The position numbers were made by a program, and so were the translations under genes. From a virus (lineage: Duplodnaviria; Caudoviricetes), in the IMG/VR virus record IMGVR_UViG_3300035520_001173, positions 1 through 64,000 of that record: a stretch of DNA of 64,000 bases; one strand, given 5' to 3'. The notes below the pieces were generated by a model, which saw only the letters and a list, made by a program, of their open reading frames with translations, did not search any database and was not told the origin of the DNA. This document shows positions 23,600 to 28,916 of this stretch, piece by piece; position 1 is the stretch's first letter; each line of letters begins with the position of its first letter.

Positions 23600-25192
23600 A
23601 TGACAAACATTAATTTAGAAAAGAAGAGCGGACAATATGGACAAACCTTATTGAATGCGATGTTACTTGCTGATGGCTATAAATTGGGCCATAAGACAAT
23701 GTACCCAGAGGGGATGACTAAACTATTCAGTAATTTTACTCCCCGTGGCAATAAGTACCTTCCCGAAGCTACAGAAGGTATGGTAGTTTTCGGTATTCAG
23801 TACTTGATAAAGAAATATCTTATTGAATATTTCAACGAGAATTTCTTTAATCTTGACGAAGATACTGTTGTAAAGTCTTATAAAGACTTATTGTTCTCAT
23901 TCTTGGGCGAGGAAGCTGCGAACAAAATTGGCACTGAGCATATTATAGCTCTTCATCGTCTTGGATATTTGCCGATTAAGATTAAGGCCCTTCCTGAGGG
24001 TTCTTACTGTCCTGTCGGTTGCCCTGTTCTTACAATCACCAATACTCATCCTGATTTTGCGTGGTTGACTAATTATCTTGAAACATTGATATCCAATGTA
24101 CTGTGGCACCCGATGACTTCTGCTACGGTTGCCGACGTGTTCAAACGTGAACTCGTAAGACATGCCATCAAGACGGGATTTTTTAATCCTAATGATTGGT
24201 CTAACATTGAATTTCTTTGTCATGATTTCTCTATGCGAGGAATGAGCACTATTGAATCTTCTATTGTTTCAGGCATGGCTCACCTTGTTTCATTCTGTGG
24301 TTCAGAAACTATTCCTGCCATCAAAATGGTAGAATACTACTACAAGGCAAATCCTAAAGAAACTTTGATTGCTGCAACCGTTCCTGCTACCGAACATTCC
24401 GTGGAATGCACAAATGCTACCAACAATGAAGACGGTACCCCGAATGATGAAGTTTACTTCAAAGAAATTCTTGAAAAATTCCCCACGGGTTATATTTCAA
24501 TCGTGGCCGATGGTTATGACTATTGGCATTTCCTTACAACTATTGTACCGAAATATCGTAAAGAGATTTTAGCCCGTGATGGCCGAGTAGTAATTCGCCC
24601 TGATAGCGGAGACCCTGTTAAGATTATTTGCGGAGACCCTACTGCTGAAAACCAATTTGTACGAATGGGTTCTTATGAATTTCTATGGAATATCTTTGGT
24701 GGCCATTACAATGAGCTTGGCTACAAAGAGCTTGATTCTCATATCGGCTTACTCTATGGCGATTCTATTAATATAAAACGCCAACGTGTAATTTACGAGC
24801 AAATGGAGAATAAATTCTTTGCCTTAACTAATTTGGTGCTCGGTATTGGTTCGTTTAGTTACTCTTTGTTGTCAAGAGATTGTCTTGCTCTTGCTTGCAA
24901 AGCTACATTCTGCATTGTGAATGGGAAATCTATTGAGATTTACAAAGACCCGAAGACGGTTACAGGTACTCCAAAAAAATCTCACCGTGGCTTAATTCGT
25001 GTTGTTACAGATGAGGATGGTAAGTATCATGTTATTGATAGATGCACTCTCGAAGAAGAGGAAAATGACAACGAGTTAAAAACTGTATTTGAAGATGGTA
25101 AACTTGTCAGAGAGTTTACTTTTGAAGAAATCCGTCAAACTCGCCGTAAAGCCGTACTTGAATCGTTAGCTGCTCAATTGCCTCATGATTAA
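23600..25192 (+). CDS. nadV: Nicotinamide phosphoribosyltransferase-like enzyme (Nampt/NadV family; candidate Namat of NARP1)
   Basis: LLADGYKLGH, FSNFTPR, HDFSMRG, VPATEHSV, VADGYD, VVIRPDSGDP, LLYGDSI, IYKDPKT...KKSHRG. Confidence 0.9.
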   Translation: MTNINLEKKSGQYGQTLLNAMLLADGYKLGHKTMYPEGMTKLFSNFTPRGNKYLPEATEGMVVFGIQYLIKKYLIEYFNENFFNLDEDTVVKSYKDLLFSFLGEEAANKIGTEHIIALHRLGYLPIKIKALPEGSYCPVGCPVLTITNTHPDFAWLTNYLETLISNVLWHPMTSATVADVFKRELVRHAIKTGFFNPNDWSNIEFLCHDFSMRGMSTIESSIVSGMAHLVSFCGSETIPAIKMVEYYYKANPKETLIAATVPATEHSVECTNATNNEDGTPNDEVYFKEILEKFPTGYISIVADGYDYWHFLTTIVPKYRKEILARDGRVVIRPDSGDPVKIICGDPTAENQFVRMGSYEFLWNIFGGHYNELGYKELDSHIGLLYGDSINIKRQRVIYEQMENKFFALTNLVLGIGSFSYSLLSRDCLALACKATFCIVNGKSIEIYKDPKTVTGTPKKSHRGLIRVVTDEDGKYHVIDRCTLEEEENDNELKTVFEDGKLVREFTFEEIRQTRRKAVLESLAAQLPHD

Positions 25193-26216
25193 CAATTTTA
25201 CATTCTTTCTCGGACTCCCTGGATGCGGAAAATCAACGCATCTTCGGAGTATTCCGAGTTGTTACAATCTCGTAGAAAAATACTACACGAGGTATGGCTC
25301 TTCATTTTCGCTGACTGCATTTTATGATTTTGCGTATCCTCTTTTATCTAATGCGCCTGATAATACCTATGTTATCTCTGCGGATGAAATAAAAGAAGGC
25401 CTAAAGGGTTTTTCAAATGAGCATCCTGAATCAGTGCATGAGGCCTCGGTTCAAATGGCCCGCAAAATTATTTGCGACTTAGCTGAAAATAAAACATTTA
25501 GTGCCAATGTGCTTCTTGACGGTGGCGGCATAAATAACCATTATAACCTTGAAATTATTGAATTCCTTAGAAATCATAATGTAAAGAACATTAAATGTGT
25601 TTATTTTGACACTCCGATAGATGTATGCCTTAAACGTATTGAACAACGAACACGTAAAGTTCCTGTTGAAGAAATCTTCAAAAAGAATCTAAGATTGGAG
25701 GTTTGCAAGAATCGTTACATCCCTTTGGTTGATGAATTTGAAAAAATAAGCTACTATACAAACAAATACCTTTTGTTAGATATGGATGGCACTTTGGCTT
25801 GCTACGGCAAAGCTAAATATGATATTCATGGTAATTCAGATTTTGTTAGCAGTGAACTTTTCAAAAACCTTAAACCTGTTCAACATGTGATTGATTATGT
25901 GAAAGAGCATTTTGATATGGCTAATGTTTATATCATCACGGCTTGTGCTAATTCAATCGCATGGAAAGAGAAAAATGAATGGTTGGATAGGTATTTTCCT
26001 GAAATTCCTATTGAAAATAGATTGTTTGTTGGCAATAAAAACTACAAACATGTTTTTATAGAGCAGTTTGCTGATATGAAAAAATGGAAACGAAATGAAG
26101 TAACTCTCATTGATGATTTTCATGAAACGTTAGCAAAGTGTGATGAAATTGGGATAAATGCTGTACACCCTTCAAATATAACCGCACTTTTTGACAAATA
26201 CAGTTCCCTGTCATGA
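25185..26216 (+). CDS. P-loop kinase (AAA_33/PNK-like) fused to a HAD (NT5C-like) phosphatase
   Basis: GLPGCGKST Walker A, SADEIK, LLLDMDGTLA, LIDDF. Confidence 0.75.
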   Translation: MINNFTFFLGLPGCGKSTHLRSIPSCYNLVEKYYTRYGSSFSLTAFYDFAYPLLSNAPDNTYVISADEIKEGLKGFSNEHPESVHEASVQMARKIICDLAENKTFSANVLLDGGGINNHYNLEIIEFLRNHNVKNIKCVYFDTPIDVCLKRIEQRTRKVPVEEIFKKNLRLEVCKNRYIPLVDEFEKISYYTNKYLLLDMDGTLACYGKAKYDIHGNSDFVSSELFKNLKPVQHVIDYVKEHFDMANVYIITACANSIAWKEKNEWLDRYFPEIPIENRLFVGNKNYKHVFIEQFADMKKWKRNEVTLIDDFHETLAKCDEIGINAVHPSNITALFDKYSSLS

Positions 26217-26614
26217 ATATTCCGTACAATAAAGAAAGATGTAAACAAAGACTCCTTAAAGATTATCTCAAGCATGGTAAATTGGTTGTTGCCTTTGATT
26301 TTGATAATACAATTTTCGATTATCATTCATTAGGAGATGATTATTCTGATATCATCAGCCTTTTAAAACAATGCACCGATTTGAACTTTGATTTAATTCT
26401 TTTTACTGTCGATACGGATAGTCTTAAGTTGCACAATAAGATTACCTATGTTTCAAAAATTTTAGTTACGTCTAATTTTACAGTTAACGAGAGTAAAGTG
26501 ATGAAAGGCTCTATCAAGCCTTACTACAATATTCTCTTAGATGATAGAGCGGGTTTAGAAGAAAGTTGTGAAATATTAAAATTTGTAATAGATTATGCAA
26601 ACAATATACATTAA
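26213..26614 (+). CDS. HAD-superfamily protein
   Basis: VAFDFDNTIF and LLDDRAG. Confidence 0.7.
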   Translation: MNIPYNKERCKQRLLKDYLKHGKLVVAFDFDNTIFDYHSLGDDYSDIISLLKQCTDLNFDLILFTVDTDSLKLHNKITYVSKILVTSNFTVNESKVMKGSIKPYYNILLDDRAGLEESCEILKFVIDYANNIH

Positions 26615-27449
26615 TTGTAAACCATCAGACCCAACGGAAACTGGGATTGTAAAAACGGAAATCCTCACGTTCAACGATGGCGAGAAACATTTAATTCTTG
26701 GCGAAATTAATCGAAAAGATTCAGTGAAGGTTGTTTGCCGAATTAAGAGTTCTGATGATTTATTCATTCTAATGCAGTTGTCAGATATTCTTAAACGACA
26801 AGCAATCGAAGTTGGTCATTTTGTAATTCGTTACCTTATGGGTATGCGCTGTGATAGAGTTTTTGATTTCAATAGACCATTTACCTTGAAAATTGTTGCT
26901 GATGTTATTAATTCATTCAATGCCCAAAGCGTAAGTATTATCGAGCCTCATTCGGTTCGTTCTATAAACGAAATTAAAAATTCAAGTGATTTCGCTATGA
27001 TTAATTTCATGACTAACAAAGTCAGATTTGATTATAAGAAAGGTTTGGAAACTTGTTTTGTTGCCCCTGATAAAGGCGCAAAAGAGCGTTACGGCTTGTT
27101 TGTTCGCTTTGGTATTGAATGTTCTAAAGTTCGTGATGCGGCTACGGGTAAGTTGTCAGGTTTTAGTAATGAACTGTTAGATGGTAATCCCGATAAGAGT
27201 AATTCCAATTTGGTCGTTATTGACGACCTATGTGATGGTGGCGGTACTTTCTGCGGCGTGGCTGATATGCTCAAAGAGTACAATCCGAAAGAAACAACAC
27301 TTATGATTATACATGCTGTAAACTATGCAGGTATTCTAAATGTTGCAAAGAGATTCACCAATGTTTATATCACTAATTCGTATGCTGATTATGACAATGG
27401 TGAGTATGAATTACCGCCGAATGTGCATGTAGTGAAAGTGCCATTCTAA
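26595..27449 (+). CDS. prs: Ribose-phosphate pyrophosphokinase-like enzyme (candidate Adps of NARP1)
   Basis: TFNDGEKH, YLMGMRCDR, EPHS, VAPDKGAKER, KVRDAATGK, VIDDLCDGGGTF, IIHAV. Confidence 0.85.
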   Translation: MQTIYINCKPSDPTETGIVKTEILTFNDGEKHLILGEINRKDSVKVVCRIKSSDDLFILMQLSDILKRQAIEVGHFVIRYLMGMRCDRVFDFNRPFTLKIVADVINSFNAQSVSIIEPHSVRSINEIKNSSDFAMINFMTNKVRFDYKKGLETCFVAPDKGAKERYGLFVRFGIECSKVRDAATGKLSGFSNELLDGNPDKSNSNLVVIDDLCDGGGTFCGVADMLKEYNPKETTLMIIHAVNYAGILNVAKRFTNVYITNSYADYDNGEYELPPNVHVVKVPF

Positions 27450-27460
27450 TTAAAAAAAAT

Positions 27461-27497
27461 AAATACCGCCACTCAATTAAGAATGACGGTATTTTTT
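27461..27497. terminator. Terminator ending the NAD operon
   Basis: AAATACCG...CGGTATTT plus T tract. Confidence 0.7.
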
Positions 27498-27509: not shown

Positions 27510-28916
27510 TTAATCCAAGGTAAAAGTCAGTACCCAATCTGATAAATCATCAGGAATATCTCGTTGCCCTTCGCACATATCAACCCACTCCAAATTCGTA
27601 TCTCTGATAATTTCAAGAAGCTCAAGTAAATCTTCTTCTAATGAACCCGAACCATTTTTACCAAGACTTACAACTGTGTAGTATTGGATTTCATCATTAT
27701 GGTTTTTAATAGCGATTACATATTTGAATAACTTATTATTCATTATGTATTTGACATGTTCGACTGGTATTTTTGTCTCATCTTTGAATAATACCGTAAT
27801 GCTATTCTCCTTACCAATCCTCATAAGATTTTGAACCGAAGGATATTTGTCGATTAATTCTGCAAGAGCTTGCTTAGATTCTTCGTCGCCGTCTATCGAT
27901 TCATTTAATTCACTTTTCTCCCAATCTCCGTGGGAAGCATCTTGAGGTATATATCCCATATCTTTTAAATTTTGTTTTGAATATCTTATACCATTTGTCC
28001 TTGGCATTTTCCAATAGGGAATATCTTTGCTTGTTGATGAAACGTAATTCCTTGGGTCAGAATCTATTTTTCTTCCGCTTTGTTTTGAAAGGTTTGTATA
28101 AAATTCGTTGTTTATACTATCTACTGAATCATCATCAAGTATTTCAATAATTCTAATCTTGTCAACTATGTACCATGTTTGGTCTTTCGTGGCATTCGAA
28201 TTGGTTCTATATTCGTAATATTCACTATCGCCTAACTTTTGTAAGCATTGGTCAGCAGGGGTTTCTGACATAGACCTTGCTTTTTCGGTAGCGTTGATAT
28301 CAACACAAACTTCAACTTTGCCCCATACTTCACTATTTCTTGTGAATTGGTAGTTATTGCCCGTGCCTTTCTTTCCATCTTTGACTTTACCATCCCCACG
28401 CTGATTACCCCATGGAGTTGTGGTCATGTGCCACCCAGGTCTATAGGCTAAATTGTCTATTTTATTGCCATCAGTATCATAACCCCTGCCTACTGTATAT
28501 AAACGATTATTTTCCGTATTGAGCCAACATTCGCCTTCACCACTTTTATACCATTTCCCAAGTTGCAAGCCTTGCGGTAAGCCCATATCTCCTTCACTAT
28601 CTGTTTTTACATAAAGAGGAAATACCATGCCTTTTGAGAGATTATTGCCGTTATTATCCAATCTAAGCTTGAATTGTTTATATAGAATAATTGGCTTTAA
28701 TTTAGGTTGAAAATCGGGTAATTCTTGGTGGGGTGTAGTTCCATGCTGATATTGGTAATAATCATATTCCATATGTTTATCTGAACCTTTGCCCACTGAA
28801 CGGCCTACCCATTTATCTTTAGGGCTTGAAATTCGAAAGTTTTGCCTTTCAGTATCACTCTTCGCTCTATATTCGTCGATAGCTTCTGCTAAAATGTTCT
28901 TAAAAAAATTATTCAT
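27510..28916 (-). CDS. Hypothetical protein with YKQF/FPLYV/LAYRPGWH domain (resembles polyvalent-protein domains)
   Basis: Motif string LYKQFK...FPLYV...GKWYK...LAYRPGWH...VWGKVEV; N-terminus NILAEAIDE; internal LNES. Confidence 0.5.
   Translation of the reverse strand: MNNFFKNILAEAIDEYRAKSDTERQNFRISSPKDKWVGRSVGKGSDKHMEYDYYQYQHGTTPHQELPDFQPKLKPIILYKQFKLRLDNNGNNLSKGMVFPLYVKTDSEGDMGLPQGLQLGKWYKSGEGECWLNTENNRLYTVGRGYDTDGNKIDNLAYRPGWHMTTTPWGNQRGDGKVKDGKKGTGNNYQFTRNSEVWGKVEVCVDINATEKARSMSETPADQCLQKLGDSEYYEYRTNSNATKDQTWYIVDKIRIIEILDDDSVDSINNEFYTNLSKQSGRKIDSDPRNYVSSTSKDIPYWKMPRTNGIRYSKQNLKDMGYIPQDASHGDWEKSELNESIDGDEESKQALAELIDKYPSVQNLMRIGKENSITVLFKDETKIPVEHVKYIMNNKLFKYVIAIKNHNDEIQYYTVVSLGKNGSGSLEEDLLELLEIIRDTNLEWVDMCEGQRDIPDDLSDWVLTFTLD

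Follow-up and report, generated by a model that had tools for sequence, protein, structure and literature searches.

A predicted NARP1 operon of a Lak-like Prevotella gut megaphage encodes a Pnkp-like kinase/phosphatase fusion and a small HAD protein between Namat and Adps

Depletion of NAD+ is among the commonest bacterial antiviral strategies, and NARP1, together with its Macro-extended form, is a metabolic answer of phages to it. NARP1 consists of Adps and Namat and is found in phages such as SPbetaL1, ICP1, and Bas63 (bioRxiv 10.1101/2024.02.11.579819; PMC12774641; PMC13586617). The extended form, NARP1-AP, is the Adps-Adpp-Namat operon of Vibrio phage Gary, in which Adpp is a Macro-domain (Poa1p-like) phosphatase of ADPR-1''-P (Osterman et al., bioRxiv 10.64898/2026.01.28.702374). 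In NARP1 and its Macro form, each accessory enzyme mirrors one way in which NAD+ is cleaved. No entry for “HAD”, “hydrolase”, or “kinase” appears in the supplements to the NARP1-AP preprint, and the literature searched yielded neither a report of NARP1 with a polynucleotide kinase or a HAD protein nor anything relevant on AfhF.

The operon described here belongs to a Lak-like Prevotella gut megaphage. As in NARP1, homologues of Adps and Namat with characteristic catalytic residues share one operon that lacks an NMNAT, but where NARP1 of the SPbetaL1 type comprises two genes, two extra enzymes lie here between the core genes. As in NARP1-AP, an embedded phosphatase gene extends the operon, and by analogy the logic of returning phosphorylated ADPR species to ADPR is likely the same; the NARP1-AP accessory, however, is a Macro protein, whereas this operon carries two HAD-fold phosphatase modules and a P-loop kinase. 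Macro (PF01661) had no match in the 84-kb source record and none adjoining NARP1 in 25 related operons or records, and Macro_2 (PF14519) had no match in 25 records, with the controls equally silent, so that the PF14519 result carries no weight. Mutual exclusivity of Macro and HAD accessories was considered and set aside as not significant, given a published rate of 15% and the small number of lineages. The first-pass annotation had proposed a larger variant of the pathway; the two extra conserved enzymes support this in part, but the concept of an extended NARP1 is not new, because NARP1-AP has already been published with an added phosphatase. What is new is the set of enzymes, that is, the kinase/HAD version.

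The window analyzed is a stretch of 64,000 nucleotides, positions 1 to 64,000 of an 84,060-bp record estimated to be 24% complete. At 23600–27449, the open reading frame listing places four overlapping genes on the + strand (ORF1 to ORF4) that end at one common hairpin terminator (Table 1). The ORF1/ORF2, ORF2/ORF3, and ORF3/ORF4 overlaps measure 8, 4, and 20 nt, respectively, and these overlaps and the assigned starts are real because homologue alignments begin at residue 1 for ORF2, ORF3, and ORF4. The hairpin, which has 5 G-C pairs in its 14-bp stem, is preceded on the + strand by an A-run, followed by a T-run, and sits between ORF4 and a convergent gene ending at 27510. ORF coordinates, aligned starts, and hairpin all agree with the first-pass description of four overlapping genes sharing one terminator, and profile matches returned the same Nampt-like, kinase-HAD, HAD, and PRPP-synthetase-like domain calls. 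Megablast of the entire operon against phage genomes gave only short matches to Staphylococcus-phage Nampt.

Table 1 Features of the operon (positions in the window)
Feature	Coordinates	Strand	Evidence
ORF1, predicted Namat (nicotinamide ADP-ribose transferase, Nampt homologue), 530 aa	23600..25192	+	NF006629, phrog_448, SPbetaL1 Namat match
ORF2, kinase + HAD fusion, 343 aa	25185..26216	+	AAA_33 + NT5C domains
ORF2 N-terminal half, Pnk-type P-loop kinase, ~aa 1-190	25185..25754	+	Walker A, fold match
ORF2 C-terminal half, HAD phosphatase domain, ~aa 191-343	25755..26216	+	NT5C, motif I, fold
ORF3, minimal capless HAD phosphatase, 133 aa	26213..26614	+	phrog_1238, motifs, BT_0820 fold
ORF4, predicted Adps (ADP-ribose diphosphokinase, PRPS homologue), 284 aa	26595..27449	+	phrog_619, SPbetaL1 Adps
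Hairpin terminator, common to operon and convergent - strand gene	27461..27494	.	14-bp stem, A-/T-runs

Profile searches found NAMPT_N and NAPRTase domains in ORF1, which scores 484 bits to NF006629 and 582 bits to phrog_448. Its match to the crystallized SPbetaL1 Namat (PDB 9W5W/9W5X) reaches 477 bits, compared with 204–210 bits for human and other NAMPT (~208 for the human enzyme) and 186–195 bits for Xanthomonas Nampt-like chains. The equivalent of Arg306 (SPbetaL1 numbering), a residue of the Namat catalytic core (PMC12774641), is kept, and the HMMER alignment shows no difference across the VVIRPDSGD block. The adenine selectivity clamp differs in part from that of SPbetaL1: the F392 equivalent in the SCH is kept, but the Y396 equivalent in the SCH is Leu, with a Tyr retained two residues earlier, and the R40 equivalent is a Lys, followed by Tyr, within a longer loop of the SCL, an element that has been called variable (PMC12774641).

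ORF4 contains Pribosyltran_N and Pribosyltran domains and scores 177 bits to phrog_619. It shares 33% identity with SPbetaL1 Adps (88 bits) and reaches at most 42 bits against any solved PRPS. In an alignment of 11 sequences that takes in ICP1 and SPbetaL1 Adps, residues H121, D161, K185, D212, D213, and F221 of ICP1 Adps are all invariant, and the PP loop reads CDGGGTF in ORF4 versus CDGAASF in ICP1. UniProt F1D1Q1 is taken as the ICP1 protein; its residue numbers agree once shifted by 26. Both the catalytic residues and the remodelled PP loop are defined in ICP1 numbering in PMC13586617, where loss of the PRPS C-terminal alpha11-alpha12 module is an Adps signature. This module is absent from ORF4, whose model matches end early, at position 276 of 309 in TIGR01251 and 275 of 316 in PRK01259. 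From score gaps and signature residues, which are the basis of the clade assignment, ORF1 is assigned as a Namat, not an ordinary Nampt, and ORF4 as an Adps, not an ordinary Prs; the predicted core is therefore NARP1. The likeness of the outer genes to the Namat/Adps pair, raised at first reading, is thus upheld by the score gaps, the Arg306 equivalent, and the six ICP1 Adps residues.

ORF2 had been described as a kinase-HAD fusion. Both domains are present, and fold matches define the protein more exactly as a T4 Pnkp-like kinase/phosphatase. Its kinase half (AlphaFold pLDDT 92) carries a Walker A motif, GLPGCGKST (G10–T18), and K16, D67, D112/G114/N117, and R151/R155/R157 are invariant in the family, with K70 at the +3 position from D67. 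By analogy with T4 Pnk, the Asp presumably acts as general base and the arginines form the lid. The best fold match is Clostridium thermocellum Pnk (Z 17.1, rmsd 2.1 Å over 152 residues), and T4 Pnk follows at Z 14–15. In the HAD half, motif I is DMDGT (D199-M-D201-G-T) and K288 and D310/D311 are invariant; folds resembling it include MDP-1 (Z 13.1), the T4 Pnkp phosphatase (5uj0, Z 12.4), and a deoxyribonucleotidase-like protein (3bwv, Z 12.4). The whole protein aligns with T4 Pnkp and Pnkp1 (Foldseek E 5e-10), and its matches to PDB sequences are marginal only. With T4 Pnkp (PseT) and Pnkp1/CthPnk, ORF2 shares the order of an N-terminal Pnk-type kinase and a C-terminal DxDxT HAD domain, the Walker A motif, an Asp base with a basic residue at +3, and an Arg-rich lid, but identity to these proteins is only about 15–18% and the predicted domain orientation differs from that of T4 Pnkp and Pnkp1 (rmsd 13–14 Å over the whole length).

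ORF3 has the HAD motif DFDNT, with D29/D31/T33, K102, and D111 (the last within a DDRAG motif) invariant, and matches phrog_1238 (E 1e-13). Its structure model (pLDDT 89) is best matched by BT_0820 (2obb) at Z 9.8, the sole chain with Z ≥8 in VIA-align; Foldseek gave no match at E ≤0.001, and matches to PDB sequences were marginal. The BT_0820 family (NF046079) and ORF3 have the same capless minimal HAD core of about 120–130 aa, but identity is 22–24% and ORF3 scores 20.6 bits to NF046079 against a cut-off of 165. The literature searched gave no description of the function of BT_0820 (BT0820). A recent paralogy of ORF3 and the ORF2 HAD half was rejected from the hhalign comparison, which gave a probability of 57% over 59 columns, and redundancy between these modules is unlikely because they are only remotely related. 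Catalytic motifs are intact in all three accessory modules, namely the ORF2 kinase, the ORF2 HAD, and the ORF3 HAD.

Loci of ORF2 and ORF3 homologues were collected from IMG/VR and metagenomes and then by tblastn. The 62 full-length ORF2-homologue loci, which come from metagenomes of the human gut, of TARA marine samples, and of other environments, among other sources, reduced to 49 distinct sequences that form 26 clusters at 60% identity. Namat and/or Adps lies within 3 kb of the ORF2 homologue in all 19 informative clusters, stop and start codons of ORF2 homologues and NARP1 neighbours frequently overlap, and at least five gene orders occur (Namat-Kin-HAD-Adps, Namat-Kin-Adps, Adps-Kin-Namat, Kin-Namat-Adps, and Adps-Namat-Kin). 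One locus (L094) has an ORF2 homologue without NARP1 neighbours, and two others (L163 and L164) have no NARP1 genes in the 6 kb on either side of it. ORF3 homologues occur in the order Namat-HAD-Adps in 46 of 75 IMG/VR loci, many of the 46 being near-identical and from one sample, and also in the crAss-like phages cr126_1 and DAC15; an ORF3 homologue is near Namat in Bacillus phage W.Ph. and adjoins Adps in Lak-A1. The four-gene set recurs in distant lineages (L147/L148 and L176) at 33–39% identity, and small open reading frames beside the distant operons had no informative domains. Both accessories are thus genomically coupled to Namat/Adps independently of lineage, and the neighbourhood check proposed in the first-pass annotation shows the middle genes kept with the pair in many lineages. 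Where a small HAD gene was found without NARP1 neighbours, it was located between a phage SIR2 gene and the gene for the Thoeris inhibitor Tad4.

On balance, we favour a role for the accessories on NAD- or ADPR-derived metabolites within the NARP1 pathway. ORF4 would pyrophosphorylate ADP-ribose, and ORF1 would form NAD+ from ADPR-PP and nicotinamide after a NAD-depleting defence has acted. As Adpp does in NARP1-AP, the accessories may make phosphorylated fragments of NAD(P), otherwise out of reach of NARP1, available to it. ORF3 could take the phosphate off phospho-ADPR, for example the ADPR-1''-P that RES-type phosphorolysis of NAD+ yields. The ORF2 fusion might work both before and after NARP1, with the HAD half removing a ribose phosphate, such as the 2'-phosphate of NADP+-derived phospho-ADPR to leave ADPR, and its kinase half re-phosphorylating a downstream hydroxyl, as in the conversion of NAD+ to NADP+. 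Such a two-sided action would account both for the pairing of kinase and phosphatase, which would then not run a futile cycle, and for the near-exclusive occurrence of the fusion alongside NARP1. Each specific substrate named for ORF2 or ORF3, those put forward in the first-pass annotation (2'-phospho-ADPR, ADPR-1''-phosphate, NMN/NR) included, is nonetheless doubtful, and the nearest structures to the ORF2 kinase, which are 5'-OH polynucleotide kinases for which NAD+ and ADPR are not obvious acceptors, count against a metabolite role.

More tentatively, the Pnkp-like fusion, with or without the small HAD, could represent a widespread form of NAD+ reconstitution, so far undescribed, that recovers NAD(P)+ from non-canonical phosphorylated products. 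In that case, either the NADP pool would be salvaged or bacteria would possess an as yet unrecognized class of NAD(P)-degrading defence whose product needs phosphatase and kinase steps. The Pnkp scaffold, which heals nucleic-acid ends, would then have been put to a new use on a small metabolite, and the “phosphoheptose isomerase” and “polynucleotide kinase” annotations widely attached to these phage genes would need correcting. The fusion and the small HAD, as second and third accessory enzymes, are conserved in gut megaphages, crAss-like phages, a Bacillus phage, and phages of marine and other environments, and suggest NADP recovery, another route against RES-type cleavage, or unrecognized defence chemistry.

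The fold of ORF2 also suggests a reading with no metabolic tie, in which it would be a true polynucleotide kinase/3'-phosphatase of the T4 type, mending broken tRNA or RNA ends for sealing by an RNA ligase as a counter to anticodon nucleases, and sharing only an early counter-defence operon with NARP1 while ORF3 is an unrelated phosphatase. Its fold match to T4 Pnkp and Pnkp1 along the entire protein fits this, as do the nearest named clusters of ORF2 in the Atlas, which are polynucleotide kinases, and RNA-ligase-family genes occur in Lak genomes and in five of eight other KinHAD-bearing records. In three loci (L090, L095, and L094) ligase-family genes lie about 3–5 kb from KinHAD, the one in L094 being of Rnl1 type and ~4 kb away. 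Such adjacency is only occasional, however: the nearest ligase match in Lak-A1 is ~38 kb off, and the window's 84-kb record, itself a fragment, has no RNA ligase. The genomic partner of the T4 Pnkp family is RNA ligase, whereas that of the ORF2 subfamily is NARP1, in every informative cluster and often with the gene wedged between Namat and Adps by overlapping codons. The HAD half also matches Pfam NT5C (37.4 bits, cut-off 24.8) and not PF25109, the HAD_PNKP family of T4 Pnkp-type domains; the argument that an NT5C match excludes Pnkp was nevertheless dropped, because remote ORF2 relatives match both families, one distant member scoring 25.3 bits to PF25109, just below its cut-off of 27.6. Taken together, we consider RNA repair unlikely.

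Ordinary or NARP2/NARP3-like salvage is less probable still. Here ORF1 and ORF4 would make NMN and PRPP, ORF2 and ORF3 would interconvert nicotinamide riboside and NMN as a 5'-OH nucleoside kinase and a 5'-nucleotidase, and a NadR-like NMNAT elsewhere would finish NAD+. The first-pass annotation had seen no NMNAT in the operon, and indeed a search of all 84,060 bp of the record turned up no gene with the cytidylyltransferase fold, although the record is only 24% complete. Complete Lak relatives encode a 386-aa NadR-like NMNAT with an AAA_28 ribosylnicotinamide kinase (TIGR01526, E 3e-56), so the window phage may have an NMNAT elsewhere; an NMNAT outside the operon, as considered at first reading, is present in the relatives but finds no counterpart in the record. 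In both the complete Lak-A1 and a second genome (G001), this gene is far from, and unlinked to, the NARP1 and accessory genes. Salvage also draws on the NT5C match of the ORF2 HAD half, a mononucleotidase family, and on Namat itself, which keeps about half of the NMN-forming activity of Nampt in vitro (PMC12774641). Against it, ORF1 and ORF4 bear Namat and Adps signatures with scores far from Nampt and PRPS, and a kinase and a nucleotidase acting on one NR/NMN pair would form a futile cycle.

A role in lifting product inhibition or drawing the NARP1 reactions forward, with one accessory removing AMP and the other hydrolyzing pyrophosphate or an ADPR-PP breakdown product, is similarly improbable. 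In its favour, Adps is at about 35% activity with 0.5 mM AMP (PMC13586617), NT5C-type HADs are nucleotidases, ORF2 has weak adenylate-kinase and UMP-CMP-kinase matches, and the low-ranking fold matches of ORF3 include a HAD pyrophosphatase, but the ORF2 kinase fold is of Pnk type rather than NMP-kinase type, its adenylate-kinase matches fall far under cut-offs, adenylate kinase and pyrophosphatase are already available in the host, and validated NARP1 operons (SPbetaL1) function without such genes (PMC12774641).

The window derives from an 84,060-bp IMG/VR record with a CheckV completeness estimate of 24%, and the nearest relatives of the genes studied here are found in the Lak megaphages of Prevotella (about 540 kb), with 73–76% identity for ORF1 and 66% for ORF2. 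Domain and profile searches confirmed the four genes reported in the first-pass annotation and their domain content; the genes are assigned here as Namat (ORF1, 530 aa), a kinase/HAD fusion (ORF2, 343 aa), a small HAD protein (ORF3, 133 aa), and Adps (ORF4, 284 aa), whose coordinates and overlaps were found as tabulated. The ORF starts are backed by N-terminal alignment with homologues. Searches with domain and phage-family profiles also place a T4-type large terminase gene next to the operon region on the opposite strand.

Features of the four-gene operon region in the window
Feature	Coordinates	Strand	Details
Four-ORF operon	23600-27449	+	Overlaps of 8, 4 and 20 nt (ORF listing)
Hairpin, 14-bp	27461-27494		A-run before, T-run after; stands between operon and convergent gene

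By sequence, the operon core is identified as NARP1, the Adps and Namat pair that rebuilds NAD+ from ADP-ribose (ADPR) and nicotinamide, and this predicted core function is well supported. ORF1 matches the SPbetaL1 Namat structures (PDB 9W5W/9W5X; PMC12774641) at 477 bits vs. about 208 bits for human NAMPT. When aligned with SPbetaL1 Namat, ORF1 has an identical catalytic Arg306 block and retains the clamp residue Phe392; the clamp differs in a Tyr396 to Leu replacement and in Arg40, which is Lys in a longer loop. The loop bearing Arg40 is described as variable in Namat (PMC12774641). ORF4 shares 33% identity with SPbetaL1 Adps (88 bits), compared with 42 bits or less for all solved PRPS enzymes. 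When ORF4 is aligned with ICP1 Adps, SPbetaL1 Adps, and eight further operon partners, the His121, Asp161, Lys185, Asp212, Asp213, and Phe221 columns are invariant (ICP1 numbering; functional roles of ICP1 residues from PMC13586617), and the PP loop reads CDGGGTF in ORF4 vs. CDGAASF in ICP1 Adps. In profile matches, ORF4 lacks the PRPS C-terminal module, the loss of which is a defining signature of Adps (PMC13586617).

The product of ORF2 is predicted to be a divergent Pnkp-type kinase/phosphatase, based on its motifs, fold matches, domain scores, and Atlas neighbours. Across the aligned family (n = 29), invariant positions comprise the Lys of Walker A, Asp67 followed by Lys70 at +3, the LDGGGINN block, and Arg151/155/157 in the kinase half, and motif I Asp199/Asp201, Lys288, and Asp310/311 in the HAD half; both halves are therefore under selection. 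The AlphaFold model (pLDDT 92, pTM 0.85) is a full-length match to both T4 Pnkp and Pnkp1 (Foldseek E 5e-10). Its kinase half aligns with C. thermocellum Pnk (Z 17.1, rmsd 2.1 Å, 152 residues), and its HAD half with MDP-1, the T4 Pnkp phosphatase, and a deoxyribonucleotidase-like protein (Z 12–13). Pfam assigns the HAD half of ORF2 to NT5C, and in a distant family member the HAD_PNKP score almost equals the NT5C score. The closest Atlas neighbours are the family's own clusters, followed by canonical PseT-type clusters.

The genomic context of the fusion was surveyed by scanning IMG/VR and metagenomes with a family profile; the 62 full-length loci recovered reduce to 49 unique sequences, which group into 26 clusters at 60% identity. 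Of these clusters, 19 are informative, being either linked to NARP1 or flanked by 3 kb or more of sequence on each side, and in every one of them Namat and/or Adps lies within 3 kb of the fusion gene. The genes occur in at least five orders, and their stop and start codons often overlap. No NARP1 linkage is seen for homologues of the HAD half by itself. Exceptions to the fusion linkage are three loci (L163, L164, and L094), the last with an Rnl1-type ligase gene about 4 kb from the fusion gene. RNA-ligase-family genes occur within a few kb of the kinase-HAD gene in two environmental phages (L090:13418-14701, PF09414; L094:6102-7181, T4 Rnl1-type, PF09511). In all 15 Lak genomes the fusion gene follows Namat, and the small HAD gene precedes Adps about 100 kb away. 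The gap between Namat and the kinase-HAD gene holds an insertion of ~1 kb in some Lak-type genomes (L086-L088, 7011-8001, and Lak-A2/Lak-B1) and measures 57 bp in others. The complete four-gene set recurs at 33–39% identity in the L147/L148 and L176 loci.

ORF3 carries the full HAD motif set and a distinctive DDRAG block in the family alignment, and its model adopts a capless HAD fold (pLDDT 89). Among solved chains, BT_0820 alone reaches a Z of at least 8 (Z 9.8), and profile-profile comparison (hhalign) indicates only remote kinship with the HAD half of ORF2. The family (phrog_1238) is widely labelled 'phosphoheptose isomerase' in public annotations (NC_055884.1, NC_016563.1, and others), including those of its annotated carriers, the crAss-like phages cr126_1 and DAC15 and Bacillus phage W.Ph.; this label does not fit its motifs and fold. 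The order Namat-HAD-Adps is present in 46 of the 75 IMG/VR small-HAD loci, many of these 46 being near-identical contigs from one sample, while three are Lak-like and reach the contig edge. The remaining 26, more distant (37–42% identity), have no NARP1 genes within 8 kb. In this NARP1-less group the gene is flanked by a phage SIR2 gene and the Thoeris inhibitor Tad4, again an NAD-centred counter-defence setting. For example, L059:6479-9724 (IMGVR_UViG_3300045988_131953) encodes the small HAD, a SIR2-family protein (E 7e-54), and Tad4 (E 1e-33) without NARP1, along with two weak radical-SAM-like ORFs. At another locus, L063, a nearby AAA_33 kinase also matches an HD domain weakly and is thus HD-Pnk-like.

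The four-gene operon is thus a real, conserved NARP1 variant, of which we found no description in the searchable literature; likewise, no mention of a HAD or Pnkp-like NARP1 partner was found there. The related NARP1-AP, published in 2026, adds a Macro-domain ADPR-1''-P phosphatase, Adpp, which defeats RES-type NAD+ phosphorolysis and is present in about 15% of NARP1 operons (bioRxiv 10.64898/2026.01.28.702374), whereas the window operon adds a small HAD and a Pnkp-like fusion. None of 25 HAD/KinHAD operons checked has an adjacent Macro gene, and substitution of the accessories for the Macro phosphatase is suggestive, although not statistically secure.

Judged from sequence, the NARP1 core and three accessory catalytic modules are intact, with the accessory genes coupled to the core. 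We infer that the accessories act on phosphorylated NAD(P) or ADPR species. We favour a small HAD that would serve as a phospho-ADPR phosphatase, by analogy with Adpp, and a fusion that would be a two-step helper, removing phosphate upstream of NARP1 and re-phosphorylating downstream of it, e.g., for the NADP pool, because this is the only scheme we devised in which a kinase fused to a phosphatase would depend on NARP1 and each activity would be of use without a futile cycle. The archaeal NADP phosphatase/NAD kinase fusion MJ0917 provides a precedent, as does CoaE, a P-loop kinase that phosphorylates the adenosine ribose hydroxyl of an ADP-containing cofactor. The Pnkp-type fold and the ligase genes close by in a few lineages also support a true RNA-repair Pnkp co-housed in a counter-defence operon, which we consider unlikely. 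It is quite improbable that the accessories handle NR/NMN in partnership with a NadR-like NMNAT, an enzyme that complete Lak genomes do encode. Relief of the AMP inhibition of Adps (PMC13586617) by the accessories is similarly improbable.

The Lak genomes provided further observations. A 386-aa NadR-like NMNAT and ribosylnicotinamide kinase (TIGR01526, E 3e-56; AAA_28) is encoded in Lak-A1 at about 30.7–31.8 kb (L122:859-2019), unlinked to the NARP1 genes; therefore, NARP1 and a NARP2/NARP3-like route may coexist in Lak phages. Lak-A1 Namat (MK250016.1, about 209.3–210.6 kb; L004:4311-5650, also L127) is split into 432-aa and 107-aa ORFs by an insertion of ~1.3 kb containing a group I intron match (RF00028, 46.1 bits, E 3.5e-10, slightly below the gathering score of 50), and is uninterrupted in other Lak genomes. 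At about 480.4–481.6 kb (L121:621-1766), Lak-A1 encodes a CoaD-like pantetheine-phosphate adenylyltransferase (TIGR01510, 133 bits, above cut-off) adjoining an RdgB/Ham1 non-canonical NTP pyrophosphatase gene.
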